A DNA stretch of 45,871 nt from a virus (Duplodnaviria; Caudoviricetes): the IMG/VR virus record IMGVR_UViG_3300044759_000050, positions 1 through 45,871 of that record; one strand, 5' to 3'. Under the pieces are notes generated by a model that saw only the letters and a list, made by a program, of their open reading frames with translations, made no database searches and was not told where the DNA came from. Positions 9,138 through 41,307 of this stretch are shown one piece after another. Position numbers and translations under genes: made by a program. How positions within the stretch are numbered: position 1 is the first letter of the stretch; every line of letters begins with the position of its first letter.

Positions 9138-9154
9138 TGATCAAATTTTGATCA
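9138..9154. repeat. 17-bp palindrome, copy 1
   Basis: TGATCAAATTTTGATCA; intergenic between convergent genes. Confidence 0.95.
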
Positions 9155-9409
9155 GCTCAGCTGGATCATCCGTGCCACAAGTCGCAAGCTTAGTAGGCTT
9201 CTAAACGCCCACCCGCTCCCATGGCTCTACTTCTACGTGTAGAGGGGGTGCCACCCCCCTCCAAGCGTGTGTGACCAACGGGCTACGCCCGTAGCCTGTG
9301 CGCAACACTGCAGCTGCGCTGCATCAGTGTGGTGACATAATAGCTACGTGACATTGTGGTTTAGTGCAACACCGTAGCCACTTGGCCACATAAGTGATTG
9401 ATTTAACAC

Positions 9410-9441
9410 AAAAAAAATACCCTGGCGTTGCCGCCAGGGTA
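9410..9441 (-). terminator. Rho-independent terminator
   Basis: 10-bp stem TACCCTGGCG/CGCCAGGGTA, GCAA loop and T8 on the minus strand, just after ORF 9459-10022. Confidence 0.85.
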
Positions 9442-9458
9442 CATGTGATGTATTCACA

Positions 9459-10022
9459 TCACTTCTTCGCCTTGCCTTCCTGTGCAATGATGCCTTCCAG
9501 CAACACACGTGCCCGCTCCTCGGACACACCAGCCGCGCGTGCAAGTGCGCGGATATCACGTACACCCTGGTCTACTGGTGAACGTTGCCCTTCGGCCAGC
9601 TCGCGTTGCACATCTACAACAGCGAACACTGTTGCATCAAGGGCACTGTTGCCCATTTTCCTCAGCCGGCCCTGAAGAATGATGCGGACACTCGAAGCGG
9701 CCCAAAAGAGTATGTCTTCTTCGCTACAGTTGCTGAAATCCAACTCGGAAACGACCGGATATTCTTCGTTGGCGTCCTTATGCAGCTTGAACGTATAAGC
9801 TGCCTTTACAACTTTGGGGCGAATCGTCTCAAAAGAGCGCTTTCTTGTGTCATCTTTGCCCAGCGGCTGACGCTGTCCAACTACGTTGGCGGCGCCCTTT
9901 GGCTTAGGGGGTGACATTTTTGCCGCACTTGTGTCCTTAGGGACACGCGGCGCCTTAGCAACCTGCGGTTGCTCATTGGTTGTGTTGCTGATCGGCTGCA
10001 CAGTGGTGATAGCGTCACTCAT
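9459..10022 (-). CDS. Hypothetical protein (probable early gene)
   Basis: GGAG RBS before MSDAITT; followed by a terminator. Confidence 0.75.
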   Translation of the reverse strand: MSDAITTVQPISNTTNEQPQVAKAPRVPKDTSAAKMSPPKPKGAANVVGQRQPLGKDDTRKRSFETIRPKVVKAAYTFKLHKDANEEYPVVSELDFSNCSEEDILFWAASSVRIILQGRLRKMGNSALDATVFAVVDVQRELAEGQRSPVDQGVRDIRALARAAGVSEERARVLLEGIIAQEGKAKK

Positions 10023-10092
10023 AGAAGTTCTCCATAATTTATTGGCCCAACAGCTGCAAAGCCACATGTGCGACGCATGTGCGACACTGTGA

Positions 10093-10368
10093 TTATTCAG
10101 CTACATTCATCATTTGCACCAGCTGTTGCCATTCGGCAACAGTGGCCTCGCAGCACAGATGCGGATAAGTTCGCGTTTTGGTTGTAAAGTTGACCAACTC
10201 ACGCAGAATAGCGAATTGACGGTCAGTAGTACACGCTTCACGTGTAGCGGCAAAATTAACATGGTGCTTGCCATGTGCATTTCTATCCGTGAGGGTTTCA
10301 CGTGTTTCGCGTGTCATACACGCTTCACGTGTATCACGGATAGCACGTATCAGCATAGACTTTCTCAT
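10093..10368 (-). CDS. Hypothetical protein (probable first early gene)
   Basis: GGGAG RBS before MRKSMLIRA; TREAC occurs twice. Confidence 0.6.
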   Translation of the reverse strand: MRKSMLIRAIRDTREACMTRETRETLTDRNAHGKHHVNFAATREACTTDRQFAILRELVNFTTKTRTYPHLCCEATVAEWQQLVQMMNVAE

Positions 10369-10429
10369 ATTGCAACTCCCAATTGTGGGCGGCGCAACAT
10401 GTGGCCATGTAGCTGTTGGGCGGTTCACA

Positions 10430-10471
10430 TTGTCAAAGAGCCCGGACTACGTCCGGTCATTCAACATACCA
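10430..10471 (-). promoter_or_regulatory. Extended -10 promoter, hairpin and boxA-like antitermination site
   Basis: Minus strand reads TGGTATGTT, then CCGGAC-GTA-GTCCGG, then GCTCTTTGACAA (10441-10430). Confidence 0.6.
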
Positions 10472-10825
10472 TGAATGCGCCATTTGGTGTGTAAAATCGT
10501 AGTGCGAGCTCTTCAACAAATTGTGATAATTATGAACATTTTGCAATCTGCGATTGCAAAATTGGGCACATTTGAGTGAGCACACGCTATGCACGTAGTG
10601 CGCAAATCGCAAGCACCTTTACGTCGCCGGCGCTGTGCGCGGCGATCTTACACGCTAGGCGTGCGTGTGGTGCGCGAACGCGCAACCTCAGGCTGTGATC
10701 GCTGGGGACGATCGCAACTCTGATCCAAATCTCTTAAAAATTTAAATAAATAAATAGGGCTCCGTCCAAAACGCTATTGGCTGCGCCAATTCATTGCTGA
10801 CGCGAAACGCTGGCGCGTTTGCAGC

Positions 10826-11293
10826 TTACGCGGGAGTTTCATCTGTCGGGGAGCGCACCTCGACAAACTCAGCATCAATGGCTGCGCCATTGGAGTTATG
10901 CGTCCCGCCTGCGGCGCTTTGGTCCATGGGCACAGGCAACGATAGCTGCTCAGCCATGGCCCTGAGCTGATCCTCAAGCATACTATCAGACATACGTCCA
11001 ACGTTCAGATTCACATTGATGCTGCTTTCAGTTTTGTCAGTATAGCCGCCAGTGCGACTGAGCTGAACAAGTGCATTCACATAACGGTCAGGAAAAGCCT
11101 TGCCAAGCTTCCTGATGTCATCATACGTCGGACTGGCTTCGAGAAATACAGCTAGCAGATCAAGAAAGGGTGTGCGGTCATACGCCCTGAGGCGTGTGCG
11201 TAGCTCATCGCCCGTAAAACCTACATGAGACTTGGGTTCGCCAGGGTCCTGCGGACCCGTACGCTCTTGCGCTACGCTTCCAGATCTGGTCAT
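10826..11293 (-). CDS. Putative terminase small subunit (oligomerisation part)
   Basis: Helical core then YTDKTE..NVN...MSD..LE..L and IDAEFVEV, resembling TerS C-termini; same strand as terL. Confidence 0.5.
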   Translation of the reverse strand: MTRSGSVAQERTGPQDPGEPKSHVGFTGDELRTRLRAYDRTPFLDLLAVFLEASPTYDDIRKLGKAFPDRYVNALVQLSRTGGYTDKTESSINVNLNVGRMSDSMLEDQLRAMAEQLSLPVPMDQSAAGGTHNSNGAAIDAEFVEVRSPTDETPA

Positions 11294-11754
11294 ACGCCAT
11301 CCTTTCGAATGTATGGGCTCTTGCGCTCCTTGCGCCCAGGCATTAGGCCGACACCACGTGCAGCCCGCAGCGCGGCATTCTGCCGCTTCTGCGCAAACAC
11401 CTCAGGGTTAGCCACCTGGTGTTCGATGCGCTTGAGCGCAATGTCAGCAGTGGTGTTCAAGCCACGCGAGCGCTGTGTCTTCTCATTCACAAGCTCAGCC
11501 GCTAGAAAGATCCACTGATCGACAGCAGTCATGCTTGTAATCCACACACCATCAGGGCGCTTAATGGCTGGGAATGCATACAGCTCAACCCAACGCCACA
11601 TCGTTACGATCGACGAGATGCCCATGTAACGACAGATGTTCTCAGCCCCAACGATGATGTTATCAGATGGATCGACGTACAAGCGTGCAGCGAAGCTATC
11701 CACATGCGAGCCGCCATAAGGCTTGTCACGGGTGGTGCCCCTAGTCATCGACAC
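11290..11754 (-). CDS. Winged-HTH DNA-binding protein (excisionase/Nu1-like fold)
   Basis: GAENICRYMGISSIVTMWRWVELYAFPAIKRPDGVW. Confidence 0.65.
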   Translation of the reverse strand: MSMTRGTTRDKPYGGSHVDSFAARLYVDPSDNIIVGAENICRYMGISSIVTMWRWVELYAFPAIKRPDGVWITSMTAVDQWIFLAAELVNEKTQRSRGLNTTADIALKRIEHQVANPEVFAQKRQNAALRAARGVGLMPGRKERKSPYIRKDGV

Positions 11755-11796
11755 ACCTGCGATGTGTATGCGATCTTACGGCTTCGCCGACGCATA

Positions 11797-12362: not shown

Positions 12363-12379
12363 TGATCAAATTTTGATCG
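12363..12379. repeat. 17-bp palindrome, copy 2 (1 mismatch)
   Basis: TGATCAAATTTTGATCG; in the divergent intergenic region. Confidence 0.9.
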
Positions 12380-15760: not shown

Positions 15761-15777
15761 TGATCAAATTTTGATCA
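15761..15777. repeat. 17-bp palindrome, copy 3
   Basis: TGATCAAATTTTGATCA directly upstream of the XRE gene's RBS. Confidence 0.95.
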
Positions 15778-23838: not shown

Positions 23839-24051
23839 ATGGCTCGTATCGGAAGACGTATAAGTGTGCAGCTGAACGATCAGCTGTATGATCGTGTGCA
23901 AGGCTTGAAGCACGGCTTTCGAAGCCCTGTGATGGAAAGCTTGATAAAGCTGGCTCTTGACGCTATCGATGAGGATGGCGACATAATGATTGGGGCACTG
24001 ATAGCGGGCGAGTACAAGCTGGTCAGGCATGAAAGGGTGCGTGGTGAATAA
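23839..24051 (+). CDS. Ribbon-helix-helix-like regulator
   Basis: RISVQLNDQLYDRV beta-alpha-alpha pattern; AGGAGG RBS. Confidence 0.55.
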   Translation: MARIGRRISVQLNDQLYDRVQGLKHGFRSPVMESLIKLALDAIDEDGDIMIGALIAGEYKLVRHERVRGE

Positions 24052-24316
24052 GGATGATGATCAAATTTTGATCACCCCGCTTAATGATCGCATCCAGCGG
24101 CTTTGGGGTCACATAACTGACATGACCGAGGATCAGCTGCGCGATCATATTCGCAAGATCCGCTCTGATCGCCGCGTCTTGAAGGCTAAGCCCGGCGTAA
24201 AGAAGCAGATCAAGGTGAGCAGTGACAAGGCGCGAGATCGCGCTCGATCGCTGTTGGCTGACGCCGACACTGATATGATTGCACGTATCTTGAAGGGGAT
24301 GGCAGATGGAAATTAA
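24029..24316 (+). CDS. Hypothetical basic helical protein
   Basis: Begins ITDMTEDQLRDHIRKIR near its N-terminus; start uncertain. Confidence 0.6.
   Translation: MKGCVVNKDDDQILITPLNDRIQRLWGHITDMTEDQLRDHIRKIRSDRRVLKAKPGVKKQIKVSSDKARDRARSLLADADTDMIARILKGMADGN
24058..24074. repeat. 17-bp palindrome, copy 4
   Basis: TGATCAAATTTTGATCA just after the RHH gene, ~230 bp before the ParB-MTase. Confidence 0.95.
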
Positions 24317-25610
24317 GACTGAGCATCTAGGCCAGGTTCCCATAGCGCTGATCAAGATCATCGACCGCTACCGATATGATAAGGGCGAGATCGAGCTGAT
24401 GGCTGCAAGCCTCGCTGAGCATGGTCAGGTCCAGCCAGTTGTGGTCAACTCCAAAATGCGCTTGTTGGCGGGCGAGCGTCGCATACTGGGCGCTCTGTCG
24501 CTTGGCTGGGAAAACATCCGCGCTGAGATGCGCACTGGCGACACCAGTATAAGCGAGCTTGAGGTTGAGCTTGTCGAGAACGAGATCCGTAAAAACTTTA
24601 TATGGCCTGAGGTGGCTCGACTGGAGAAGACCATCTTCGACATGAGATGTGCTAAGGACCCGAAGTGGAGCCAGCGTAAGCAAGCCGAGATGCGAGACAG
24701 CGCACAAAGCGCTGTGAATATGCGTCTTCAGCTAGCTGAAGCCATTGAGTTGTTGCCTGAGCTTGCTGAGTGCGAAACTCAAGACGAGGCGTGGAAGCAG
24801 TACAAGCGGCTTGAGGAGGTCATAACTATCGGCCAGCTGAAGACTGAAATCTCAGATGATGTTCGTAACGCGCCTCAGTGGGCTCACCAACACTACATCG
24901 TGGGTGACGCCTTGGCGGAGATGCCCCTTATTTCAGACAATCTGGCTCATTTTGCCGAAGTCGATCCGCCGTACGGAATTGAGATCGATCGTCGCAAGGG
25001 TCGCAATGAGGGCGAGGGCTTCATGGGCGACTACAACGAGATCGATGCCAAGCGCTTCCCACCGTTCATGAAAGCTGTCATAGGCGAAACCTTCCGTATC
25101 CTGAAGCCAAACAGCTTCGCCGTGTTCTGGTACGGGATGCAATGGCACTGTGAAATGCTGAAGTGGCTCGATGCTGCCGGCTTCGCTGTTAACCCAATGC
25201 CTGCCATGTGGTACAAAGGCAACAGCGGCCAAACCGCCCAGCCAGACGTCGCCCTGGCCTCGTGCTACGAACCGTTCTTGCTGGCTCGCAAGGGCCAACC
25301 CAAGATGCTCCGTCAGGGGCGCGGAAACGTCTTTCATTACGCACCCATCCCGCCTAGTCGCAAGATCCACCCCACAGAGAAGCCGATCGAGCTGCTTAGC
25401 GACATCTTGAACACCATTCTGTTTCCAGGCTCGACCGTATTGATACCGTTCCTCGGTAGTGGCGTAACCCTGCGAGCCGCATACAAGGCTGGCCACACAG
25501 GCTTTGGGTTCGATCTGAGCGAGGCTAACAAAACCCGTTTTGTTGAGGCCGTAGGACGCGAATTCGCATCAACCGAGGACGATGGTAATGGAGCTGACAG
25601 CGACGCATAA
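24306..25610 (+). CDS. ParB-like N-terminal domain fused to a beta-class N6A/N4C DNA methyltransferase
   Basis: GQVQPVVV...LLAGERR...ELVENEIRK (ParB); DPPY, HPTEKP and PFLGSG (MTase). Confidence 0.88.
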   Translation: MEIKTEHLGQVPIALIKIIDRYRYDKGEIELMAASLAEHGQVQPVVVNSKMRLLAGERRILGALSLGWENIRAEMRTGDTSISELEVELVENEIRKNFIWPEVARLEKTIFDMRCAKDPKWSQRKQAEMRDSAQSAVNMRLQLAEAIELLPELAECETQDEAWKQYKRLEEVITIGQLKTEISDDVRNAPQWAHQHYIVGDALAEMPLISDNLAHFAEVDPPYGIEIDRRKGRNEGEGFMGDYNEIDAKRFPPFMKAVIGETFRILKPNSFAVFWYGMQWHCEMLKWLDAAGFAVNPMPAMWYKGNSGQTAQPDVALASCYEPFLLARKGQPKMLRQGRGNVFHYAPIPPSRKIHPTEKPIELLSDILNTILFPGSTVLIPFLGSGVTLRAAYKAGHTGFGFDLSEANKTRFVEAVGREFASTEDDGNGADSDA

Positions 25611-25782: not shown

Positions 25783-26053
25783 AACTCGCAGGTGGAGCGA
25801 TGGCGAAAACGCCATCTTGTGGGACTGCGAGTTCATGGATGACGCCCTCCGTCGCCTTCCACACCGCTCCAAGGGCTCGATCCGCCAGCACTGCTGGAAC
25901 CACAACATACCCTACCCACTGACGAGGGGAAGCCGCTACTATGAGCACTATGTACGAAGACGGAAATCCCAGCTCGAAGCTCGTGGTCTTAGGCCAGGCA
26001 CCCGGCCGGGAGGAGGCGAAGCGGAACCTGCCACTGGTGGGACCGTCGGGTGA
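25763..26053 (+). CDS. Myb/SANT-like HTH protein
   Basis: RWSDGENAILW...LPHRSKGSIR; overlaps the polymerase start. Confidence 0.55.
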   Translation: MENRTNKTRRWSDGENAILWDCEFMDDALRRLPHRSKGSIRQHCWNHNIPYPLTRGSRYYEHYVRRRKSQLEARGLRPGTRPGGGEAEPATGGTVG

Positions 26054-27569
26054 GGTGTTCCACGATTGCTTGGGGCTAGCCGGCATCAGCCGACGTGACG
26101 TCTATATCTTAAACATCTGGGAATGCGTCGTTTATACCGATGCAAAGACCGGCACCATCTTCAGCACAAACGGAGGACCTCCACTGTGGACAAAGAAAGG
26201 CTTCACCGAGTACGGCTTGGAATTAGCTCAAGGCACGCTAGAGCGCTTGAGGCGATCTGGAGCCAATTGCATTCTGGCGCTTGGACAGCAAGCCCTGGAA
26301 TTATGCACCGGAAAGTCCGATCGCATTATGAAGTGGCGGGGTTCACCCATGGTCAGCTTAGATCGTACCGGTGGGAAGAAGTTGATCCCAACTGTACACC
26401 CGGCAGCGACTATCCATGGCGTTTACCTGTGGAGATACTTGATCATCAGCGACATGATCAAGGCGAAAGCGGAGTCGACGCACCCCGAGCTGGTCCTCCC
26501 ACGCCGAGACATATTGATCCGGCCGACGCTGAACGAGGCTCTGTACTTCATACGAATGTGCCAGCGAGCGGACCGGGTAGCCACCGACCTGGAGGTCGTC
26601 AACCATCAGATTAGCTGCTTCAGCCTATGCACCCAGGTCGACGAGGGGATCACGATTCCCTTGACCCACGAACACGGTGCTTATTGGGACGAGGGTGACG
26701 AAGCCCTCATCTGGCTTGAATATGCTAAGCTGATGGGTGATCCCAAGATCATGAAAATCAACCAGAACATGGTTGGCTTCGATGCAGTGTTTATGCTGCT
26801 GCAGAACAAGATACGCGTGCGCGGAGCGATCGGCGATCCGATGATTGCCCAAAGCCTTCTGTATCCTGAGTTCCTGAAGGGCATTGACTTCCAGGCCTCA
26901 ATGCACACACGCGAGCCCTATTGGAAAGACGAGGGCAAGATGTGGAAGAACGAAGGGGGTGACTTTCCGACATTCTGGAGGTATTGTGGCAAGGACGCAT
27001 GTGTTGCCATGGAGCTGTGGGACGTACACGCTGCCGAGCTAACGCGCCGGGGCATGTGGGACACCTACAACGAAACCGTCGAGATGATGGACCCCCTGAT
27101 CTACATGACGCTCAAAGGCCTAAAGGTGGACAAGAATAAGCTGGAAACCACCAAGGCTGACATCGAGCAGCAGATCGATGTGCTGGAAGCAGAGCTGATC
27201 GAGGTCGCTGACTATCCGTTCAACGCATTGAGCAGCGCCCAGTGCGCGAAGTACTTCTATGCGCACAAGGGCTTGCCTGCATATAAGAATGCCAACGGCG
27301 GCGTCACAACTGATGACAAGGCCATGAGCCGCATCTTCCGTAAGACCGGCTGGCGTGAGGCCAAGATCGTGCAAGAGATCCGTAACTTGCGTAAGCTGAA
27401 GGGCACCTACTTGGAGATTGAGTTCGATGCGGATTATCGCTTGAGGTGTACATGGAACCCACGCGGGACTTGGACAGGCCGACTGAGCAGCAGCAAGACC
27501 ATTCTTGGTACAGGTACGAATCTTCAGAACCTCGACCCAAGGTTCAAAGGCTTCATAGTGGCCGACTAG
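25941..27569 (+). CDS. DNA polymerase A, N-terminal part: UDG-like domain, 3'-5' exonuclease and thumb
   Basis: UDG motifs GQAPG..E..P.VG.SG and HPAA; Exo I DLE, Exo II N..GFD, Exo III YCGKD; TGRLSS...NLQN then a stop after FIVAD. Confidence 0.9.
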   Translation: MSTMYEDGNPSSKLVVLGQAPGREEAKRNLPLVGPSGEVFHDCLGLAGISRRDVYILNIWECVVYTDAKTGTIFSTNGGPPLWTKKGFTEYGLELAQGTLERLRRSGANCILALGQQALELCTGKSDRIMKWRGSPMVSLDRTGGKKLIPTVHPAATIHGVYLWRYLIISDMIKAKAESTHPELVLPRRDILIRPTLNEALYFIRMCQRADRVATDLEVVNHQISCFSLCTQVDEGITIPLTHEHGAYWDEGDEALIWLEYAKLMGDPKIMKINQNMVGFDAVFMLLQNKIRVRGAIGDPMIAQSLLYPEFLKGIDFQASMHTREPYWKDEGKMWKNEGGDFPTFWRYCGKDACVAMELWDVHAAELTRRGMWDTYNETVEMMDPLIYMTLKGLKVDKNKLETTKADIEQQIDVLEAELIEVADYPFNALSSAQCAKYFYAHKGLPAYKNANGGVTTDDKAMSRIFRKTGWREAKIVQEIRNLRKLKGTYLEIEFDADYRLRCTWNPRGTWTGRLSSSKTILGTGTNLQNLDPRFKGFIVAD

Positions 27570-27570
27570 G

Positions 27571-27780
27571 ATGCGTGTCAAAAGGCTTGATCAAAACGGA
27601 ATACGCTACTACAATCGGCGGTGGTGCAGTCAGGTGGTGGTGTCTAGCTACTTTCCTAAGGCTAAGCCCTGGCGATGTAAGACGTCGGCCAATTGGCTAA
27701 TCGACGATGTGCCGTACTGCAATCGGCACGCTGGGCTGATGGCCCTAATTCACATGGAGGACGAGCATGAGAGACATTGA
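27571..27780 (+). CDS. Small putative Zn-binding protein inside the split polymerase locus
   Basis: C...C...YCNRH; coupled to its neighbours. Confidence 0.55.
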   Translation: MRVKRLDQNGIRYYNRRWCSQVVVSSYFPKAKPWRCKTSANWLIDDVPYCNRHAGLMALIHMEDEHERH

Positions 27781-28030
27781 TTCAGTGTTGCGAGACGTGG
27801 GCGAGGAGTTCTCGCGTGCAGTCAAGAAGTTCCCACGCTCCTTCGTGAATGCACACGAAGGTTTCTCCGTGCTGTATGAGGAAGTCGACGAGCTGTGGGA
27901 CGAGGTCAAGGCGGACAATCGCGAACGTCAGCTCGCCGAGGCTATCCAAGTGGCTGCCATGGCTGTGCGGTTCGTGGTCGAGCTGAGCGGCCGTGACCGC
28001 AATGAGGAGGAGGGGCGCAATGCTAGTTGA
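27767..28030 (+). CDS. MazG-like NTP pyrophosphohydrolase
   Basis: EGFSVLYEEVDELWDEV...EAIQVAAMAVRF; GGAGG RBS. Confidence 0.75.
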   Translation: MRDIDSVLRDVGEEFSRAVKKFPRSFVNAHEGFSVLYEEVDELWDEVKADNRERQLAEAIQVAAMAVRFVVELSGRDRNEEEGRNAS

Positions 28031-28907
28031 GTTTGATCTCGCGGGGGCCGAGTGGGTCATCGTCGCATACCTCGCCGACGATGCCAACATGCTGAGCGTC
28101 GTCAAATCCGGCCGCTCGCCCCATGTGGCCACCGGCGCCCTAATCAGCCGCTGCCCTGAGGCGCTGGTCATCAAGGAGCATGAGTTGCTTGGCTCCATGA
28201 CTGACCCAGATGGCCTGCTCACGATGCGAAAACGGGTCTTGCCAGAGCTGTTTGAGGGCGACTACTTCATCCCGCGGTCGATGACCATCAGACAGGCTGG
28301 CAAGAAATCTAATCATGGCTTGAACTACAACATGAAGTACCGGCGCTTTGCACTTGAGAATGAGATGCCTGAAACCGACGCTAAGCCCATCGTGGAGCTG
28401 TACAATGATGAGGCGTATCCAGGCATACCTCGCACGTTCCATGCTGACGTACGCAGCGAGCTGAAGACCAATGACCGTACAATCGTGAACCTGCTAGGCC
28501 GCAAAGCCCGCCTGTTGGATCAAGCCGGCTCGGACCTGTGGGACAAGGCGTACGCATTCAAGCCGCAGTCGACCGTCTGGGACATCTGCCGACAGGCCAT
28601 CGTGCGGGCATTCAACAGCACAGACCCGCTGTTCGAACCCATGCAGTTGAATGCCCAGGTACACGACTCTATCCTGTTCAACTATCCCAGCGAGCCGCGT
28701 GAGCGGCTCATGGCCTTTGCCAGCCGGATGGTCGAGTTGATGAGCGTGAAACTCGTGGCTAAGGGCCACGAGTTTGTGCTGGGGGTGGATGTGAAAGCTG
28801 GCCCCAACTGGGGCCAGATGGAGAAGCTTGTACTACCCAAAGATATCTCTGAGGAGTGGCGCCCTAGGGACACCGCTGGTGTCCCCCTGATCGGGGCGAC
28901 TATATAG
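28020..28907 (+). CDS. DNA polymerase A, C-terminal catalytic part
   Basis: Motif A DLAGAE; motif B RQAGKKSNHGLNY; motif C VHDS; G.NWG; own AGGAGG RBS. Confidence 0.9.
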   Translation: MLVEFDLAGAEWVIVAYLADDANMLSVVKSGRSPHVATGALISRCPEALVIKEHELLGSMTDPDGLLTMRKRVLPELFEGDYFIPRSMTIRQAGKKSNHGLNYNMKYRRFALENEMPETDAKPIVELYNDEAYPGIPRTFHADVRSELKTNDRTIVNLLGRKARLLDQAGSDLWDKAYAFKPQSTVWDICRQAIVRAFNSTDPLFEPMQLNAQVHDSILFNYPSEPRERLMAFASRMVELMSVKLVAKGHEFVLGVDVKAGPNWGQMEKLVLPKDISEEWRPRDTAGVPLIGATI

Positions 28908-30209: not shown

Positions 30210-32531
30210 TTATTCCATGGACATTGCTTTGTCAAGCTCACTGATAAAGGTGTTGAAATTGTAAGATAGGTTCTCGGCCTGCTCTTGCGTGATCGTGCCG
30301 TCGCCTAGCATGTTGTGAATAGCGTACGCACCGCCACGCAGCACAGCAGCCGCCTTAACGGCACGGCGAGCCTCAGGCGCCAGCACCGTACGGAGTGCCC
30401 GCGCTGAGCGCGGATCACTGATCATGTTGGCCAACATGCGGCTGCCGCCAATCGTGATGATCGCCCCAACGTAGCCAGGCGTCGCCGCTCCAGCGGTTCC
30501 CACAATCGCCCAAGGGCGCACTGTGTTAATCAAGCTCTTAATGCCGCCCATAGTCGCTCTACGAGCGACAAAGGTCGATACGTCAGGGATCTCAGCGGTG
30601 CTCGCCCTCCGTGCCACCTCCACCAAGTTGCCAACCTGATCCATCGTAAGGCCACCCGCACGCTGCAGGAGCGCTTGCGTCTGCAGGTACTTTCCGCTGC
30701 GCGGATCGTTTAGGCCGATTTGCTTCGCAAACTCGTCAACGTCGAAGCGACGGACGTTGTTCGCCTCAGTGATTGTGGAGCGCTGGACGGCTTCATTCAT
30801 CACAGCGCCAGCCAGCGATCGCATCGTCTCAGGGCGAACAAGCCGGCCCAGTTCGTTGACCATCGCCGGGCTGTCGCCGCGCAGGATTACCTTGGCCAAG
30901 CCATCCATGCCTCGGGTGCCAAGGTCAGTTAGCTGAGCCGATCTGAGCGTTGGAGACGCCGTCATACCCATGCGCCGAGCGCTGGTCGATTGCAGCACCT
31001 GCATCACGGTATCACGGAGCGTGTCATCCAAGTTGCGGAACTCAGCAATGATGGCTCGGCTCTGAGGCGTAGACGTCCCACCACGCTCAGTTGCATTAGT
31101 CAGCATATCCATCTGCACAGCTTGGCGCAAGCGGTCCAAGCGGCCGAGGGTACGTGCATCACCGCTCCCAGCATATTGAACCATCTTCTCGTCAATGGTC
31201 TGCAACAGCGTGTCCATGCGCCGCAGCGACTGATCAGCGATCTGCGTACCAGACAGGCCTGTCTGTGGGTTGATGTCGGTCAGCTGGCGCGTGGTGCTTC
31301 TGATGAACTTGCGCAGATCCTCAGATGCCTTGGTCGTGGCAAGGCGGCCGCCACCAAGAGCCTGTGGCGTCTCCTGAATCAGCTGCTTAGCAAGTGTGTC
31401 TGTCGCTGTGCGTGTATGCACAGGCCTAACAGTCACACCCATGAAGTCAGCGCGACGCAGCAGATCTGTGAATTCCGCCTGGAAGTGATTGCCAATATTC
31501 GCTGAGGTTTCGCCGGCCTCACGCAGGATGTTACCACTGACCTCGTCGAAGCTGGCTAGCGGCCCCAGCCGCTGCGGGATGCCATCAAACGCTCGGCTGA
31601 TCTGACCCATAGCTCGCTCAGAGCGTGCCTTGAGAGCCCCGGCAACCCAGGGAAAGCGGCCCATCACTGACACAAAGCTACGCGCGTACGTGCCGTTGCC
31701 CACCTGAACCGGGAGGATAGCAATGCCCTCGCGCGTAGCCGCCTCAGCAAGCTCCCTCGAACCGACGTTAGAGCCGGTCAAGACGCCCGTCACGCCACGG
31801 CCCAGCGCGCGTGCGGTTGAGACGCCTCCTAGCGTGGCGATGTCGAGCAGCACCTCGCCCTCAAGGACTGTTGCTAGCTTCTCATTGCTCAAGCCAAGCT
31901 TATCGCGCGAGCCGGGCTCCATCATGCCCGTCGCTTCCAGCAGCTCCATTGTAGTTTCGGGGGCAATCGCCCCCAAGCCGGTGCCTACAATGCTGCCCAT
32001 GACGCCAGCAGCGCCCTTGACAATAGGGGGTCCAGGCACCCCCGTTGCCGCTAGGCCCAAGCCCACTCCGCCACCGATCGTGGTGCCCATGCGGGTCCAA
32101 GGTAGCGGATCGTCAACATCTGTACCGAACAGCCGCCCCATCAGCTTGCCGAAGATGCCAGGATTCTCATCGATAGCAACGTTGGGCTCATCAAGCCGTT
32201 GAACAGGGTCTTCAGGCTGGGTCAGCGATTCAACTGGGCTGGGGCCAAGGGGGCCAGCGGCCCCTTGACCAAGGCGTCTTTGCAGCAATGCGATCGAGTC
32301 ATCCAAGCCGCTCGGCGCTGGTTCGGCTGGGGCCACAGGCTCAGCTGGCGAGGGCTGAGGTTGAACAACGGGACTAGGCCCCGTGGGCATCCCGGGAGCA
32401 CGCTCAGGCATAGGCACTTGCGGCGGAGCCTGCGGGTCGCCTGGCAAAGGCTCCGCTGTTGGCCGCTCTGGCTGTGGCGGTTGAGGTCCCCCAGGAGCGC
32501 CGATTTGCTCCTCAAGTAGCTGATCTACCAT
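30210..32531 (-). CDS. Internal virion/DNA ejection protein
   Basis: 773 aa; Gly/Ala-rich helical; podovirus synteny. Confidence 0.65.
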   Translation of the reverse strand: MVDQLLEEQIGAPGGPQPPQPERPTAEPLPGDPQAPPQVPMPERAPGMPTGPSPVVQPQPSPAEPVAPAEPAPSGLDDSIALLQRRLGQGAAGPLGPSPVESLTQPEDPVQRLDEPNVAIDENPGIFGKLMGRLFGTDVDDPLPWTRMGTTIGGGVGLGLAATGVPGPPIVKGAAGVMGSIVGTGLGAIAPETTMELLEATGMMEPGSRDKLGLSNEKLATVLEGEVLLDIATLGGVSTARALGRGVTGVLTGSNVGSRELAEAATREGIAILPVQVGNGTYARSFVSVMGRFPWVAGALKARSERAMGQISRAFDGIPQRLGPLASFDEVSGNILREAGETSANIGNHFQAEFTDLLRRADFMGVTVRPVHTRTATDTLAKQLIQETPQALGGGRLATTKASEDLRKFIRSTTRQLTDINPQTGLSGTQIADQSLRRMDTLLQTIDEKMVQYAGSGDARTLGRLDRLRQAVQMDMLTNATERGGTSTPQSRAIIAEFRNLDDTLRDTVMQVLQSTSARRMGMTASPTLRSAQLTDLGTRGMDGLAKVILRGDSPAMVNELGRLVRPETMRSLAGAVMNEAVQRSTITEANNVRRFDVDEFAKQIGLNDPRSGKYLQTQALLQRAGGLTMDQVGNLVEVARRASTAEIPDVSTFVARRATMGGIKSLINTVRPWAIVGTAGAATPGYVGAIITIGGSRMLANMISDPRSARALRTVLAPEARRAVKAAAVLRGGAYAIHNMLGDGTITQEQAENLSYNFNTFISELDKAMSME

Positions 32532-32534
32532 AGC

Positions 32535-33986
32535 TTAACCCTTTCCACGAGGCGGTTTGCCCGGCTGCGCCGGAGGCCTCGGTGTAATGTAGTCAGGCAG
32601 CTTCTTTTTGCGAGGCTTGGCCGGAGCTTTAGGCTTCGCATCGCCAGCGGGCTTCGGAGCCTTCGGCTCAGCTTTGGGCTTGGGTGCGGCTGGTGCCTTT
32701 GGCTCGCTGGTTGCAGATGTGGCAGCTTTGGCAGCGGTTTCAGCCGGCTTCGACGCAGCGGCGTCGGGGACTGAAAGTCCCCGCTTCTGGAACTCCCTCG
32801 TAACGCGGTCGACCTCAAAGCCCTCCTTGAATAGCCGCTCAGCCGCCTCGTTGTCCAGGTTCAGCTTCTTGCCAGCTATCCGATCAACGATCACGCGGGG
32901 CGGCAGGTTGAGTGAGCGGGCCAAACCCTCCATGCCAATGCCCTTCTCAGCCGCCTCATAGAACGTGCCGACTGGATCTTGTGCGAACACCTTGCGATTG
33001 TCTTGCCAGAACTTGGATGGCGCCTTAGGCATTGAGGTGTAGCGCTGGAAGTCAGTCGCAAGCGTTTTGTTCTCCACATCCATCGCCGCCTGAAATTCCT
33101 TGTCGCGCTGCTTATTGAGGCGGGTCGTGGCAGCTTTGTCCGTTGCAGCGGTCTTTTTGCCTCGTGCAGCCGCATCAGCCGTAGCAGCGTCGTCAGCCAG
33201 CTTCTTGCTAGCGGCCTCCTGTGTCTTGCGAGCCGTTCGTTCGGCGACCATGCTAGTCGCTTTGCCAATCAGGCTTGGCACAGCTGCACCAGCACTGCCT
33301 ATGGCAGCCGTCACTGCCCCACGGCCAACAGCGCGACCTACGCGCTCGCCAGATACGCTTGGCTCCTCAGTGGGGCCACTGGAATAACCCTGCGCAGCTC
33401 CCTGTGGCGCAGCCACAGCCGCACCTTTACCCATCGAACCAGCGATGGTTTTGCCGGGCTTCATGAACCCAGCCATCATGCCAGTCACGAAGGGCATTGC
33501 GTTTTCAGCTGCTGCGACAAAGTCGGGATGCTGCTCGGTCAGCTCGTCCAAGCGCCGCTCATGCTCTTGGCGCACCTTGTCGAAGTCATCTGACTTCACA
33601 CGGCCAGACGCCACGTCAGCTGTGGCTTGTATCCAAGGCAACATGCCCCCAGTGAGGACGTTGGCCACGAGCAAGTTCTGACTGTCCTTGTAGCGCGTGT
33701 CATCAGGGCTGACGAGGCCTGCCAAGTTCTGGCCCGGAGCCTTCTCAGGTAAATCGGGTCCAGCTGGGGTGATCAAATTTTGATCAGTTAAGGTGGATGG
33801 GTCCGCCGCAGCTTGTGCCGTCCGCACCTTGACAGGCGGAGGCGTAGGCAGGGGCTCCGGCCTCGGATTGAAGACGTCCTCCATGGTCTCCGGATCGTGC
33901 GGATCAGGGAAGATCGGCTCGCCCCTGGCCATAGGCAGAGCTGGCTCAATCGGGACCTGACGAACCTCGTCGCGTAAAGCCATCAT
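32535..33986 (-). CDS. Internal virion/DNA ejection protein
   Basis: Ala/Gly-rich with a K/P/A tail; synteny. Confidence 0.6.
   Translation of the reverse strand: MMALRDEVRQVPIEPALPMARGEPIFPDPHDPETMEDVFNPRPEPLPTPPPVKVRTAQAAADPSTLTDQNLITPAGPDLPEKAPGQNLAGLVSPDDTRYKDSQNLLVANVLTGGMLPWIQATADVASGRVKSDDFDKVRQEHERRLDELTEQHPDFVAAAENAMPFVTGMMAGFMKPGKTIAGSMGKGAAVAAPQGAAQGYSSGPTEEPSVSGERVGRAVGRGAVTAAIGSAGAAVPSLIGKATSMVAERTARKTQEAASKKLADDAATADAAARGKKTAATDKAATTRLNKQRDKEFQAAMDVENKTLATDFQRYTSMPKAPSKFWQDNRKVFAQDPVGTFYEAAEKGIGMEGLARSLNLPPRVIVDRIAGKKLNLDNEAAERLFKEGFEVDRVTREFQKRGLSVPDAAASKPAETAAKAATSATSEPKAPAAPKPKAEPKAPKPAGDAKPKAPAKPRKKKLPDYITPRPPAQPGKPPRGKG
33770..33786. repeat. 17-bp palindrome, copy 5 (intragenic)
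   Basis: TGATCAAATTTTGATCA inside ORF 32535-33986 (encodes DQNLI). Confidence 0.95.
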
Positions 33987-35932
33987 CGACCTCCTGGACG
34001 TGGGGGCATCCGCTGCGGTGCAGGCGTCAAGCGGAATGCACTCACATCCTGCCCGCCGCCCACGGAGGCTCCGCCTCCGCCACTCACTGAGCCGCCTCCA
34101 CGCGAAGCGATGGCTTGTCCAAAGCTCTGAAATGCCCGGGCAATCGCCGCAGCGTTCTTGGCATCCTCATCCTTGCGATCCTGCGCCTTACGGTACTCAA
34201 AGGTCTCGCGTTGAAACGCCTCGTCGCGCTGACGATTAGCTTCGGTCGCCTGGAACTGCTGCTGCTGCAGGCGCTGCGACTCGATTTGCGCAGTCGCAAG
34301 CCTGTCTTCGCGATCGAGCGACCGTTCCTCGCCGCGGGTCGCCCGCTGCTCACGCTGCAATTCAAGCGACTGCGTCTGGTCAGAGCGTTGGATCTCCCTA
34401 GCCTTCTTCTCGGTCTCCAGGGCGCCGAGGGTCTGTTCTTCCTCAGCCAGCGTCGGGCTGGCAGGCGTCACAGTCGCACCCTTGTCGCCACTCTTACGCC
34501 GCTGAGCCTCTTCAAGCAGCGACCGTGCCAGATCGTCTGGCAAGATGTCTGCACTCTCAGCCATCAGCTTGATGTCTTGATCGGCTAGCTGCTTGGTGAT
34601 GATGTTCATTCCGCTGATGCCAACCTGCCGCTTCATGGCTTCATCGAACTCGCGTGTGACCCCAGCGATTGTTCCAGTCAGCACCTTTTTGAACTGCTCC
34701 GGCGAGGCGCTCTGACCAATCATTGTGAGGTTCTGCGTAATGATGGCATTGGTCAAGCGGTTACCTGGGATGTCCTGAGCGATAGCCATCCGGTAGGCGA
34801 GACTCAGCACACTTGATTGGATCTGAGCACTGGTTTCAGCCGTCGCATCCAGGCCATGGCCCTTCGCCAGCTTGTCTCCAATGCGCTTTGCAAGGTAGCT
34901 AATACGCGGGTCTGTGGGATCGCTCTCATTCTTGGTGCCTGGATTGATCAGATTGATCACGCCCTCGACCTGGCGAATGGTCGACTGGAGGGTGCGTACC
35001 GCACCCCCGACTGGTCCCAGCACCTCCGGCCGGCCCTCGAACAGCTTGGTCATCTTGGCTGCTTCGCTGATGGTGCCACTGATCCCAACCGCCCGTGTGT
35101 TGATCGACTCGGCTACCTTGTCCTGCTCCTTGGGATCGAACGGCACCCGGTAGCCGGCCTGGATCAGGTCATTGTTGCGGTAGCGTTCGCGCGAGTCCAA
35201 ACCCAGCGCACCCACAAGTGTGGGTGACGCTTGCTGTGCAGCACTCGGCACAGTTCGCTGACCCTCGAAGCTTTGAATGGCTCCAGGCCCCTGCTGGTAC
35301 GGCCTCGGCCCAGTCGCCGCAGGCGTTGCCCCAGGCTGATCCTGTGTCAGCTGATCTTGGCGCTTTGCAGGAGGCTCCTCGGCGAGCGTGTCTCCAGCTG
35401 CGCCGCCAGCCAACTCGTCTTGGCCAGCTCCACCACTGATGGCTTCGCCGCCCGGCTGTTGCGGAGCAACCCCCTCAATCCCACCAACCTGATCGATGAA
35501 CTCATTCATAGGCACCTGACCCGTCATGATGCCACGGATCGTGTCAGTAATCTGGCCGGGCTGCGCTCCCTCGAGCTGTTGGCTGAAGCCAGTTCGGAGA
35601 GTCTGGAGCGTATCGGGGTCCAAGCTCGTGATCATGTTGTCAAGCTCGCGGAACTGCTCGCTCTTCGGATCCACGCCTACATGCTTGGCAAGCTCCTTGT
35701 TCAGAAACTTACGTGCTGGCTTGGCCAGACGGCTATCAAGGATTTTGTACAAGCGACCAGCAAGGTCGAGGTCGGCGCTGCGCATCTGAGATTGTTGCGC
35801 TTTGCTCTGCAGCTCAGCGCCTTTCTTCTGCTGCGCCTGCATGAACTGGCCTCGCTTCTCCTTGAACGCCGCATATTCGTCAAGGGTGGGCACACGTGCC
35901 TGACCAGGGCTGCCAAACTGACCAATAGCCAT
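33983..35932 (-). CDS. Internal virion/DNA ejection protein
   Basis: 649 aa; Q/E-rich coiled coil; synteny. Confidence 0.6.
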   Translation of the reverse strand: MAIGQFGSPGQARVPTLDEYAAFKEKRGQFMQAQQKKGAELQSKAQQSQMRSADLDLAGRLYKILDSRLAKPARKFLNKELAKHVGVDPKSEQFRELDNMITSLDPDTLQTLRTGFSQQLEGAQPGQITDTIRGIMTGQVPMNEFIDQVGGIEGVAPQQPGGEAISGGAGQDELAGGAAGDTLAEEPPAKRQDQLTQDQPGATPAATGPRPYQQGPGAIQSFEGQRTVPSAAQQASPTLVGALGLDSRERYRNNDLIQAGYRVPFDPKEQDKVAESINTRAVGISGTISEAAKMTKLFEGRPEVLGPVGGAVRTLQSTIRQVEGVINLINPGTKNESDPTDPRISYLAKRIGDKLAKGHGLDATAETSAQIQSSVLSLAYRMAIAQDIPGNRLTNAIITQNLTMIGQSASPEQFKKVLTGTIAGVTREFDEAMKRQVGISGMNIITKQLADQDIKLMAESADILPDDLARSLLEEAQRRKSGDKGATVTPASPTLAEEEQTLGALETEKKAREIQRSDQTQSLELQREQRATRGEERSLDREDRLATAQIESQRLQQQQFQATEANRQRDEAFQRETFEYRKAQDRKDEDAKNAAAIARAFQSFGQAIASRGGGSVSGGGGASVGGGQDVSAFRLTPAPQRMPPRPGGR

Positions 35933-36870
35933 TACAGTGCTCCATAGTCAACTGTCTTGTAACCCATCCGCTTGCCCACAGCTGTGGGCAAGACGGCCTC
36001 GACGTCGCTCGCAAACACGCCAATCCTTCGCTCACCATCGATCGTGAACTCATAGATGGGGATCCCAAGCCTGTGATGCATCGAGATCGGGATGGCATCA
36101 CTCTTCAGACGCTCATCGCTGAACAGGAAGGCCGCCCCAGCGGGCGAGCCAAATATGGAGCCAGCCGCCCCGACGCCTGCTCCGATGATGCTAGCCAGAT
36201 TATTACCCCTTGATGCGCTGGCTTGGAACTGCATCTGACGCTGCTGAATGTAGGGCGCCTGCGCCTGACCATAGCCCTGGGCATTCTGACCGAACGCTCC
36301 AGCCAGCGTAAGCGGATCGCCCATCGAGCTTTGACGCAGAATGTCTTGCGCTGAGCGCTGCGAATAGTCGTTCTGCTGCTGGCGAGTGATGCCAAGTTGC
36401 TCGGACAGCGTAAGCTGTGCGGTCCTAGCCCCCTCGCGTGCGACGTTGGCGCTTTCCTCGAACTTGCCCAACGCCTCAATGCCAGCGCTGCTGGTCTCGT
36501 AGCCTGGCCCCAGCTGTCGACCCAGCCGCTCCCTGAGCGTCTCACCCTGCTCGCCGATGTCACGCTCCAGGCCTGGGGAAACCGGAAGGTTTCCAGCCAA
36601 CGCATCAAGCGAGCGCTGCGTCAGCTGCTTCTCCAGGTCCTTCCGCATGTTGTCCAGCTCAGAAGGCGTCTTCTTGATGCTGGTAATGTTGCCATTTTCA
36701 TCCGTCTCGACCTCAAAACCCTCTTGTTCGGCGAGGAATGGAATCAAGATGGCTTGCTGCTGTCGCTGCTGCTGCAAGATCTCGGTTTGCAGGCGCAGCT
36801 GCTCGGCTTGCTGCCGCTGAAGGTCGCGCTCCTCAGCAGTCGGCTTAGGTACCTTAGGTCCACCGCCCAT
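35932..36870 (-). CDS. Internal virion protein with C-terminal peptidase S74-like (self-cleaving chaperone) domain
   Basis: Begins MGGGPKVP; Q-rich; ends FSDERLK...IYEF...IGVFASDVE...P.AV...VDYGAL. Confidence 0.75.
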   Translation of the reverse strand: MGGGPKVPKPTAEERDLQRQQAEQLRLQTEILQQQRQQQAILIPFLAEQEGFEVETDENGNITSIKKTPSELDNMRKDLEKQLTQRSLDALAGNLPVSPGLERDIGEQGETLRERLGRQLGPGYETSSAGIEALGKFEESANVAREGARTAQLTLSEQLGITRQQQNDYSQRSAQDILRQSSMGDPLTLAGAFGQNAQGYGQAQAPYIQQRQMQFQASASRGNNLASIIGAGVGAAGSIFGSPAGAAFLFSDERLKSDAIPISMHHRLGIPIYEFTIDGERRIGVFASDVEAVLPTAVGKRMGYKTVDYGAL

Positions 36871-38594: not shown

Positions 38595-39333
38595 CTGTGT
38601 TAGCGTTGGTTATGTAGTGCATTCTGAGGCCAATCAGGAACGCATCAACCGCCATGGTGTCGCCGCCATCCGTCGTGAGACGCCGAATGATGAAGTTAAC
38701 CAGATCATTCTCTGCTGGCGTATCAGACTCCACGGTTGTTGACTCATTGGATATGTAGAGGTCGTTTGTGGTCCCCCCCGTGTCAACCACTATGTCGCCG
38801 CCGCCATAAGTTGCGCCATCAATTATATCATCATTGCTGTATGACTTGGCAAACATCTGCCAAGCCACGCCAAAGTTTGTGACTGTTGCTGGATGCATCC
38901 AGTATGCCTGGAAGGTAAATGTACCTTCGTCCCAGCTTTTAGGCATTGCAATGGTGAAAGTTGCGTCCTCCGCATTCGTTGGATCAAATGCCAAGTAGTC
39001 AAACTGCGTCGAGCTGGCCGAGAACGATCCAATTGCCGGACCAACCGTACGGATCTTCATCGCCGTCGCAGGGACCCAGAAGGTCTGCTTGCCTGAGCCG
39101 ACAACAGTGTTGGATGAGCTAATAGGCGCAGCACCAAATGTCCTGATAGCGGTGCCACTCGTGCCGTCAAATACGACAGCGTGCCCGTCCACCACTGGCG
39201 GCGTTGCCCCCTCGACCTTGTCGGTGTTCAGGTTCTGTGCATTGCTCACATGGTTGACGTGGTCAAAGTTATAGATCGCCGCCGTCAGAATGGTGCCGTT
39301 CGCCCGCGTGGTGTGGCCATTAATAGTGCTCAT
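38587..39333 (-). CDS. Tail fibre/baseplate-proximal protein
   Basis: Beta-rich; AVVFDGTSG and MPKSWDEGT; in the tail module. Confidence 0.65.
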   Translation of the reverse strand: MSTINGHTTRANGTILTAAIYNFDHVNHVSNAQNLNTDKVEGATPPVVDGHAVVFDGTSGTAIRTFGAAPISSSNTVVGSGKQTFWVPATAMKIRTVGPAIGSFSASSTQFDYLAFDPTNAEDATFTIAMPKSWDEGTFTFQAYWMHPATVTNFGVAWQMFAKSYSNDDIIDGATYGGGDIVVDTGGTTNDLYISNESTTVESDTPAENDLVNFIIRRLTTDGGDTMAVDAFLIGLRMHYITNANTDA

Positions 39334-39680
39334 GGAATGCCCTTCCGCTTCGTATCGACAGCCACAACCTTCGGATGATCACGCAGTTTCCAGTTGAATG
39401 CCTCTAGGAGGTCCAGCATCATGTCATCAATATCAGCGTCATGTAGCGCCAGAAGCGCCGTTTCGTCATTTCTGACCAGCGGTAGACACCTGATGCACAG
39501 CTGCGTCACATGCCAGCTCGGCCCCGGAAAGCGCATTTTCATCTCGGCATAGTTCTTATGATAAACGAACCCCCGAGCGGCCTGGCTAGCAATCATGTCA
39601 CCGCACACCTTGCAGTGAACGGCTATAATTCGTCCTGTCAGGTCACGCCCAATGTAGCGAGGCATTCTCAACTCAGTCAC
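39330..39680 (-). CDS. Hypothetical protein with two CxxC motifs
   Basis: CKVC and CIRC; coupled within the operon. Confidence 0.6.
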   Translation of the reverse strand: MTELRMPRYIGRDLTGRIIAVHCKVCGDMIASQAARGFVYHKNYAEMKMRFPGPSWHVTQLCIRCLPLVRNDETALLALHDADIDDMMLDLLEAFNWKLRDHPKVVAVDTKRKGIP

Positions 39681-41273
39681 TTAGACCTCCCTCAGTCGCT
39701 CGTCCGCGACCTGGAATGCAACACGGATCTCCGCAAGTCGCACCTCCTCGTCAAGGTTCTCATTGCTGATGGACAGCTTCAGCTTGCGGCCCTGGCCCTC
39801 AAGGCGCTTGTTCGTTGTCACGGTGCCAATGGCACTCAGCACATCCGTATCCAGAATGAAGCTGCCCAGCACTGCTCCCGGCGAGCCAATCGTAAAGACG
39901 ATCGGGTCCTGCGTGAAGTTGTCCCAGCTGGGAATGACGGTCAGGCTATAGTTGCTTACGATGTCAGAAACGATCTCGATGTACTGGCCGTTCTTGGTGC
40001 GTGGCGCGAGCTGCGGATCTAAGAAACCAAAGTCGTTCTCGCTCGTGTCCATGGTCATGGAATAGGCTGCGCCGTCCTTATTGCGTGCGTCCTCGTCCAT
40101 CAACCATACAAAGCCCAGATCGTCGCCCAGCGTTGGGCGTTCCACGCCCTGCGAGTCAGGCCGCATCCACAGCGAGCAGCCAGTGTCCCTGCGGCTCAGG
40201 TAATAGCGTGCGCCAACCTGCGGCTCGTTGAAGTCCACCAGGATGCGCAAGTCGTTGTCTGTTCCGCCGCTTAGCGGCACCATGAACCATGCCTTCGACT
40301 TGGCTGGATACCAGGCGCCACGTGCCTGACGCATTGCAGTGAGGTTCAGCGTCGACCTGACAAACGGCCCCAGATCTTGCGGCCGCCCGATGTCGCTTGT
40401 GCTGATGTCACTGAAATCATTGACCGAAGACATCAAGTGGAAGTTGGCTGTGCTGTCGCAGATCAAGATGTCATTGCTGATCTGAACAATGCAGTCATGA
40501 TTGGCAGCGCCAATTGCCCCCGTCAGCCGATCGACGCGCCAGTTAGCGATGGCAGCATCTCTCGTATCGACCAGATAAATACCCTTCGGGTATTTGAACA
40601 GAATAAGCAATCCGCGGAAACTGATCCCGCCGACGAGCTGTTCACCCTCGCCTGGATAGATGTTAAGCGTTCCACTTCCGGAGCCGGTGAAGTCCTGGTG
40701 ATTTAAGGGGTTACTGTAATATATGCGGTGAGGTTGGCTAGCGTTTCCACCAGCCCACACTCTGTTTACATGCTGCACGCCAAAGATGGGGAAGCTCACA
40801 GTCCAGTCAGCGGCAGGTGTGCTGATGTCAGCAGCCGTTCCGGCTGTGCCTAGCACAACCTGCACCTGGTCTGACTCTTGGAACATGAACAGCTTGCGGA
40901 CGCTGCCAGCATCCTCGCCGCCCGCCCGGCAAAAGCTGGCTGGGTACACCACAGGTGGAACGATCGTAGTCAGCAGCGTTGGAAACGTGCCAGCGCCTGT
41001 GTCCTTCCGCATCTGGCCATTGCTCAACAGCACGATGTCGTCATTGCTCGCAGGCGCAGGGCTCCAGTTGATGCCAGCAATGATCTTGCTGGGCGCCCCC
41101 AGCGCTATAGCGTTGAGCTTTTCTGCACCGCCATCCTTGATCAACACGCCGCCGTCGATGTCCACGCCCTCGACAGCACTGAAGTGCCCCGGGCCGAGCC
41201 TCGACGCGTTCTTCGAGCCGTTGAAGCCTTGAAGACCGATCGGCAGTGTGGCGATGTTGCCTCTATAGGCCAT
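39681..41273 (-). CDS. Tail nozzle/tubular protein (P22 gp10/T7 gp12-like)
   Basis: 530 aa; beta-propeller-like segments (NRVWAG, RIYYS); follows the adaptor. Confidence 0.7.
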   Translation of the reverse strand: MAYRGNIATLPIGLQGFNGSKNASRLGPGHFSAVEGVDIDGGVLIKDGGAEKLNAIALGAPSKIIAGINWSPAPASNDDIVLLSNGQMRKDTGAGTFPTLLTTIVPPVVYPASFCRAGGEDAGSVRKLFMFQESDQVQVVLGTAGTAADISTPAADWTVSFPIFGVQHVNRVWAGGNASQPHRIYYSNPLNHQDFTGSGSGTLNIYPGEGEQLVGGISFRGLLILFKYPKGIYLVDTRDAAIANWRVDRLTGAIGAANHDCIVQISNDILICDSTANFHLMSSVNDFSDISTSDIGRPQDLGPFVRSTLNLTAMRQARGAWYPAKSKAWFMVPLSGGTDNDLRILVDFNEPQVGARYYLSRRDTGCSLWMRPDSQGVERPTLGDDLGFVWLMDEDARNKDGAAYSMTMDTSENDFGFLDPQLAPRTKNGQYIEIVSDIVSNYSLTVIPSWDNFTQDPIVFTIGSPGAVLGSFILDTDVLSAIGTVTTNKRLEGQGRKLKLSISNENLDEEVRLAEIRVAFQVADERLREV

Positions 41274-41290
41274 ACGCGTTCATCCTATGA

Positions 41291-41307
41291 TGATCAAAAT
41301 TTGATCA
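41291..41307. repeat. 17-bp palindrome, copy 6
   Basis: TGATCAAAATTTGATCA in the 40-bp gap between adaptor and nozzle genes. Confidence 0.95.

Follow-up and report, generated by a model that had tools for sequence, protein, structure and literature searches.

The stretch of DNA analysed here, called the window, is the viral record IMGVR_UViG_3300044759_000050 (Duplodnaviria; Caudoviricetes) at its full length of 45,871 nucleotides. This virus record (45.9 kb) is rated 100% complete and classed as linear, and about 43 bases at its two ends are nearly identical. Its genes encode a portal protein, a terminase, a D5-type primase, a PD-(D/E)XK nuclease, Sak4, a split family-A polymerase and a capsid protein. 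Furthermore, the window carries a gene for a fusion of a ParB-type nucleotide-binding fold, a helix-turn-helix (HTH) and a DNA methyltransferase, as well as six dispersed copies of a 17-bp palindrome, which are probably the DNA sites of this fusion (Table 1). Searches of the window genome gave no PF13614 match for a ParA and neither a tyrosine integrase nor a resolvase; because no integrase was found, there is no sign of lysogeny.

Table 1. Positions of the palindromic sites and of the genes and domains associated with them (ORF, open reading frame; RHH, ribbon-helix-helix; aa, amino acids; G numbers denote related phage records).
Feature	Position	Strand	Remarks
Site 1	9138..9154	no strand	between convergent genes; G001 and G002 carry a site in the same interval
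Site 2 (one mismatch)	12363..12379	no strand	divergent gap upstream of the primase-helicase gene; same interval occupied in G001 and G015
Site 3	15761..15777	no strand	16 bp upstream of the XRE gene start (15794)
Site 4	24058..24074	no strand	in the opening codons of ORF 24044-24316; the ParB-methyltransferase gene follows after 232 bp
Site 5	33770..33786	no strand	about 200 bp inside late-operon ORF 32535-33986
Site 6	41291..41307	no strand	between late genes 39681-41273 and 41314-42261; same junction occupied in G003 and G015
RHH-like small ORF	23839..24051	+	same operon as the fusion; fold judged from the sequence pattern, without a library match; possible partner or rival reader
Small basic helical ORF	24044..24316	+	directly upstream of the fusion; possible partner
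ParB-HTH-methyltransferase gene	24306..25610	+	434 aa; PF02195 28 bits and PF01555 53.7 bits, both above cut-off; putative site reader
ParB N-terminal nucleotide-binding fold	24351..24605	+	aa about 16-100; invariant residues, PF02195
Helix-turn-helix	24666..24752	+	aa about 121-149; R124 at 24675-24677, Q134 at 24705-24707
Beta-class N6A/N4C methyltransferase domain	24894..25565	+	aa about 197-420; DPPY 220-223, PFxGxG 381-386

Five copies of the palindrome are exact and the one at 12363 has a single mismatch, as listed in a first-pass annotation of the sequence, and the window holds no further match at up to three mismatches. Shuffled genomes contained 0.08 copies on average and two at most, and six were reached in 0 of 100 shuffles. 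Other descriptions in that annotation were borne out as well: the copies are AT-rich (4 G+C of 17 bases, compared to 57% genome-wide), four are intergenic and two lie within ORFs, and the fusion gene starts at the indicated distance of roughly 230 bp after copy 4. No sigma-70-like promoter overlaps any of the six sites, the nearest match beginning 112 bp after copy 2, in agreement with the earlier remark that no promoter pair covers them. The partly shared flanks, also described before, are alike over a longer distance than had been noticed. Among the 12 half-site flanks, AG at +5/+6 and CT at +6/+7 occur in six each and GA at +10/+11 in seven (uncorrected p-values of 2e-6 to 4e-5), and a weaker likeness extends to about +12. 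Two flank types can be distinguished, one CTTA-like at +6 to +9 and one with AG at +5/+6 plus GAT at +10 to +12; flanks pooled over relatives favour CT at +4/+5. A wider footprint, a local target and gene conversion are candidate readings of these preferences.

The fusion protein combines features of ParB-like DNA-binding proteins and of beta-class methyltransferases. In its N-terminal fold, R21, R23, G40, G56, R59, E88, E91, N92 and R95 are invariant in all 74 alignment rows, and all three boxes of the nucleotide pocket (Boxes I–III) are invariant among homologues at 31–68% identity. The HTH, which was missed by Pfam, comprises helices 123–130 and 134–149. A profile of 62 family members matched Noc over positions 2–181 (E 2e-20), Spo0J over positions 4–150, and ParB and KorB too, and a fold search yielded Noc (7nfu, E 5e-7); TIGR00180 scored 32.7 bits against a cut-off of 58.45, and TIGR04285 likewise remained below its cut-off. 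Q134 aligns with the Gln of the Noc recognition helix. The residues at this helix position are R173 in ParB, which recognises guanine, and Q158 in Noc, which recognises adenine (PMC7383237). In the methyltransferase domain, the catalytic DPPY precedes the S-adenosylmethionine-binding FxGxG. DPPY is invariant in all 73 rows covering this region and HPT-x-x-P is invariant as well, which argues for a working enzyme. Fold and motif order are those of CcrM, M.RsrI, M.MboIIA, M.BceJIV and rotifer N4CMT (Foldseek E 4e-12 to 7e-10); in contrast to these beta-class enzymes, the window enzyme is fused to a ParB-HTH part and has lost the Asp of motif I. Linker helices and the methyltransferase take the place of the ParB-type C-terminal dimerisation domain. 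Many beta-class methyltransferases are dimers, and the methyltransferase domain may provide the dimer contact in lieu of the missing domain. Only about 15 residues precede the ParB fold, and they lack the ParA-binding motif given in PMC12704722. A single-sequence structure model of residues 1–180 was poor (predicted local distance difference test score of 47) and was not used.

Relatives of the phage were gathered via the capsid and via the ParB fusion, and their palindromes were searched without presuming the motif of the window. Many of them carry a dispersed 17-bp palindrome of their own with an A+T core and 4–10 copies, including TGTCCAAAWTTTGGACA in G001 (four copies), TGGCCCAWWWTGGGCCA in G003 (five), TGTTCAAAWTTTGAACA in G006 (six), TGATCRAAWTTYGATCA in G015 (five), TGGAACAWWWTGTTCCA in G038 (ten) and TGTAACAAWTTGTTACA in G040 (seven); families of at least three copies were reached in 0 of 250 shuffles. 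The symmetry is kept and GATC is mostly absent. The first-pass annotation had emphasised the two GATC tetramers of each copy, which did not hold up: GATC is unremarkable in the window (351 observed, 289 expected), and because the palindromes of related phages use different letters, the GATC content of the sites is incidental. A reading of the sites as GATC/Dam signals was thus rejected. Site positions are partly conserved, and the gene order around the sites is kept between relatives. The closest relative, G001, has all of its four sites in intervals that also contain a window site (1, 2, 4 and 5), but their letters differ; the location of site 4 is the best conserved one among relatives. The counterpart of the ORF that holds site 5 has a site of its own inside the gene in G001, and sites near the gene start in G003 and G015. 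By a fixed rule applied to records of at least 39 kb, a family of at least three copies was found in 8 of 18 ParB-positive versus 0 of 7 ParB-negative records (one-sided Fisher p about 0.04, or about 0.06 leaving out the window); looser rules add G010, G035 and G044, giving 11 of 18 (p 0.007). The absence of ParB from the seven negative records was confirmed by Pfam search, four of the seven being rated less than 60% complete and most lacking the entire replication module. The informative one is G004, which keeps the replication module and both small neighbour genes and lacks ParB and the site family. Comparing the presence of the motif with that of ParB, as the annotation had suggested, therefore gave a divided answer: among the records compared, families occur in ParB-positive ones only, and several relatives keep the ParB-methyltransferase without detectable sites, which is in part the outcome that the annotation had named as refuting the ParB link. 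Pooled over 18 records, the sites are spaced more evenly than random (combined p 8e-5). Among GenBank phages, the Desulfofustis phage MD01 (34% identity) carries nine copies of TGTCCCAAWTTGGGACA with a 23-bp extension; its genome is described as assembled from a metagenome, with a lytic lifestyle predicted (10.1101/2023.02.06.527410). The fusion of Vibrio phage 1.213.O has no HTH and no such sites. In G034–G043 and MD01, the ParB-methyltransferase replication module and sites were found alongside capsids unrelated to that of the window by tblastn, and the system therefore travels with the replication module.

The searches also returned site variants and unrelated repeats. L141, L322 and L189 carry an 18-bp version of the site, with one additional central base, about 250–270 bp upstream of the fusion. 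The sites of L114/G054 and of G044:C5, a 44-kb phage-like contig in a record labelled as a Woesearchaeota bin and possibly mis-binned, combine two unlike half-sites, TGAACG and TGATTA. In G002 (L150), an extra ORF at 32270-32730, homing-endonuclease-like by eye, separates the small gene from the fusion, and a palindrome lies 27 bp upstream of the fusion start. In G004 (1-8300 and elsewhere), which also has repeated promoter-like modules, G+C-rich hairpins of 17 nt recur, their loops being short and made of purines, and the ParB-negative G008 has a 16-bp palindrome clustered ahead of the small terminase gene (31344-36870); both were rejected as members of the A+T-core family. A search for non-palindromic repeats in G002, G005 and G010 gave nothing convincing. 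The exact window motif was found at 59 loci in viral contigs, about 57 of them single-copy contigs of mostly A+T-rich DNA, and was informative for the G015 group only.

To relate the reading helix to the site letters, we compiled 35 phage/site pairs, 20 of which have at least three copies; among the 15 pairs with fewer (one or two copies), L143, L209 and L261 were selected from lists of candidates with knowledge of the helix residues. Rows of the 74-row alignment that were duplicates or had no site call were excluded. Of 392 alignment columns, column 134 had the top rank for positions 3 and 4 of the half-site (matched by 2 and 0 of 200 permutations, respectively), and column 124 ranked first for position 2. 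Q134 is paired with A at position 3 in 7/7 cases, and A is found in 0/28 other pairs. R134 goes with G (2/2), K134 with C at position 4 (9/10), V/I134 with T at position 4 (7/7), and R124 with G at position 2 (22/22). The R124 and Q134 of the window agree with its T-G-A half-site. On a tree from which the HTH had been left out, Q/A was concordant in 7/7 independent pairs (p 0.016), and the near-identical L217 and L219 differ both in the residue and in the site. Because the site letters covary with residues 124 and 134, we infer that the HTH of the fusion binds the sites, which is very probable and the best-supported step of our interpretation. The ParB-methyltransferase, already named as the best candidate reader in the first-pass annotation, is thereby favoured by sequence evidence from across the relatives.

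The residue-to-base rule was written down before 80 metagenome loci were fetched. With near-copies of training rows set aside, 51 of these remained (six of which had already been seen without a site); 33 fell into predicted classes and 12 had a site call. The rule fits nine of the 12; one clade supplies three of these fits, and 7/10 at one-in-four odds corresponds to a p-value of about 0.004. L329, which is 74% identical to L197, has Q in place of K and the site letter A in place of T. Three 18-bp variants fit the rule, as do L260 (K, four sites) and MD01 (K), whose nine sites are of the predicted type.

We propose that the six palindromes are parS-like loading sites of a ParB-methyltransferase clamp that probably methylates the phage genome in cis, and assign this reading a probability of about 0.5. 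A dimer of the fusion would load at a palindrome via the HTH, nucleotide binding would close the clamp around the DNA in the way known for ParB, Noc, KorB and BisD, and the closed clamp would slide outward from the site. The methyltransferase would modify phage DNA in cis and spare DNA without sites, and sites every 3–14 kb would cover the genome. The intact pocket and the dispersed sites favour clamp sliding, whereas the missing C-terminal domain weighs the other way; on analogy, nucleotide-gated closure and sliding seem fairly likely. Whether methylation in cis is the purpose, e.g., for protection from host restriction or as a mark of self, is an evenly balanced question. The most far-reaching form of the proposal falls slightly short of even odds: a lytic phage family may direct a methyltransferase to its own genome by a nucleotide-gated sliding clamp, which would load only at private, evenly spread sites and act on DNA in cis, with site and helix switching together among close relatives by a simple code (Q-A, R-G, V/I-T, K-C).

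Several observations speak against this proposal. Regarding the protein, the absence of a ParB-type C-terminal domain bears on the clamp step. In motif I, I380 replaces the Asp before PFxGxG (V/I/S/C clade-wide; the solved aligned relative has Asp), and the methyltransferase activity may therefore be altered. N6N4-methyltransferase fusions were among 50 proteins selected in PMC12704722, the accessible part of which names none of them among 11 nucleotide binders and describes nucleotide preference as not predictable from sequence, and in one phage ParB the nucleotide residues are not required for activating a DNA-modifying enzyme (PMC13229309). Regarding the sites, their spacing in the window alone is not significantly even (p 0.096). 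Ten of the 18 near-complete ParB-positive records failed the fixed rule, three of which were rescued, G002 and G032 stood at two copies and five showed nothing clear, so that about seven of 18 lack a clear site family; none was found in Microcystis phage Mel-JY34 (24% identity) either. Regarding covariation, the tree contrasts for K/C (about 4.7/6) and V-I/T (3.8/4) point in the same direction, neither being significant alone. Among the 20 best-supported pairs, column 134 ranks second and fourth, behind clade-marking methyltransferase columns, and in a pairwise partial-correlation test, which was dominated by such columns and set aside, it came fifth of 339 and third of 353. Among the new loci, L328, L365 and L396 (3/12) contradict the rule, 21 of 33 in predicted classes have no site call (nine with less than 400 bp upstream, two with fitting 18-bp variants), and several without R124 nonetheless have G at position 2.

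The main rival keeps the same protein and sites and assigns them a role in long-range transcription control or genome organisation like that of KorB or BisD, with the RHH-like or the small upstream protein perhaps as a clamp-locking partner and methylation as secondary or regulatory. It is consistent with sites that stay at the same gene junctions in different relatives, one of them just before the fusion gene, with the two small genes in 19/22 and 22/22 site-bearing records, and with the lost Asp of motif I. Moreover, KorB with KorA silences promoters up to 1.5 kb away (PMC11790492), and BisD slides about 50 kb and activates promoters (PMC12409273). However, the invariant DPPY and HPT-x-x-P argue for a working enzyme, no site is overlapped by a promoter, and the even spacing suits genome coverage; we consider this role unlikely. 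A still smaller chance is given to a fusion that sits statically at its sites and methylates or shields nearby DNA only, the ParB fold being a dimerisation or allosteric module without sliding. The lack of the C-terminal domain, the nucleotide-independent phage ParB activator (PMC13229309) and the flank preferences at +5 to +12, which could be a local target, would fit such a protein; the invariance of the three nucleotide-pocket boxes among divergent homologues would not, and a few local marks would not protect 46 kb.

Both remaining explanations take the sites away from the fusion. Operators or stoperator-like transcription roadblocks could be read by the RHH-like ORF 23839, the XRE protein 15794, the RHH-like ORF 25582 or the HTH protein 11290, and dispersed repressor sites are known (PMC9283540). 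We counted these candidates with iterated profiles over 22 site-bearing records. XRE 15794, which the annotation had offered as an alternative reader, and RHH-like 25582 are present in one record each and HTH 11290 in eight, and all three were rejected on their distribution. The RHH-like ORF 23839 adjoining site 4, the other alternative offered, is widespread in the family (19/22) and has one beta-strand column with z 3.7 for position 4, but it is lacking in the complete G006 with its six sites and present in G004, which has no family. The best columns of ORFs 23839 and 24044 reach z 3.7, compared to z 5.6–9.2 for ParB columns 124 and 134 on the same rows. With this weak covariation, and no integrase that would point to lysogeny, operators are very improbable. 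Least probable of all are host transcription-factor sites, Dam-related GATC signals or recombination sites. The flanks common to several copies could stem from recombination or gene conversion, but among close relatives the site letters change along with a phage protein, GATC is not conserved, no recombinase was found and the gene order around the sites is kept.

Compared to known systems, the ParB-methyltransferase and its candidate sites resemble Noc-NBS and chromosomal ParB-parS (PMC7383237, PMC8429893) in the ParB nucleotide fold with an HTH, in the dispersed palindromes and in a helix position with apparently identical base preferences (Q-A, R-G). They differ in that the phage sites have 17 bp (some 18) instead of 16 and are phage-specific and fast-changing, and in that a methyltransferase replaces the C-terminal domain, with neither ParA nor a membrane helix; because ParA and the C-terminal domain are missing, the system is not a ParABS member. 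KorB-OB of RK2 (PMC11790492) and BisD-bisS of ICEclc (PMC12409273) are likewise ParB clamps of mobile elements with their own loading sites and action at a distance outside partition, and BisD carries an extra effector domain, as the fusion does. These clamps regulate transcription, whereas the phage protein is fused to a DNA methyltransferase in a genome without integrase or ParA. Mycobacteriophage stoperators (PMC9283540) are similar in their many genome-wide sites away from promoters, but are asymmetric and bound by the monomeric immunity repressor of temperate phages; as the window sites are palindromic, integrase and resolvase were not found and XRE is absent from 21/22 site-bearing records, membership in this group was rejected. 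ParB-N6N4-methyltransferase fusions with the same two Pfam domains are already known and are frequent in phages and prophages (PMC12704722). The accessible part of that report gives their function as unknown and mentions no HTH, DNA site or mechanism, to which candidate sites and a recognition rule are added here. Our literature search, which did not extend to subscription journals, found no paper giving such fusions DNA sites. A common phage enzyme of unexplained function would gain a testable DNA address, and with candidate sites and a residue-to-base rule at hand, binding, nucleotide gating, spreading and methylation become testable with one protein and short oligonucleotides. The family forms a natural series of protein–DNA specificity switches, with 4–10 sites changed together, and extends the two-state case of ParB and Noc. 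If sliding methylation is true, it would be a novel means of restricting DNA modification to a single replicon, in which self and non-self are told apart by topology and not by target sequence, and would amount to a programmable, range-limited DNA writer.

In the operon of the fusion gene, a homologue of ORF 24044-24316 lies upstream of the fusion in 22/22 site-bearing and 11/11 other ParB-positive records checked. Its product has no family match, and an ESM Atlas search with the products of ORFs 23839 and 24044 gave no usable lead; a search of genome collections returned three loci only and no host from them. Further downstream, the family-A DNA polymerase (25941-28907) is encoded in two parts separated by two small ORFs: ORF 25941-27569, which bears a uracil-DNA glycosylase domain at its N-terminus, and ORF 27993-28907. 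Finally, several 6-bp palindromes are strongly depleted in the window, including GCGCGC (1 versus 16 expected) and CTCGAG, GCATGC, GGTACC and CCTAGG (1 each), which suggests host restriction pressure.

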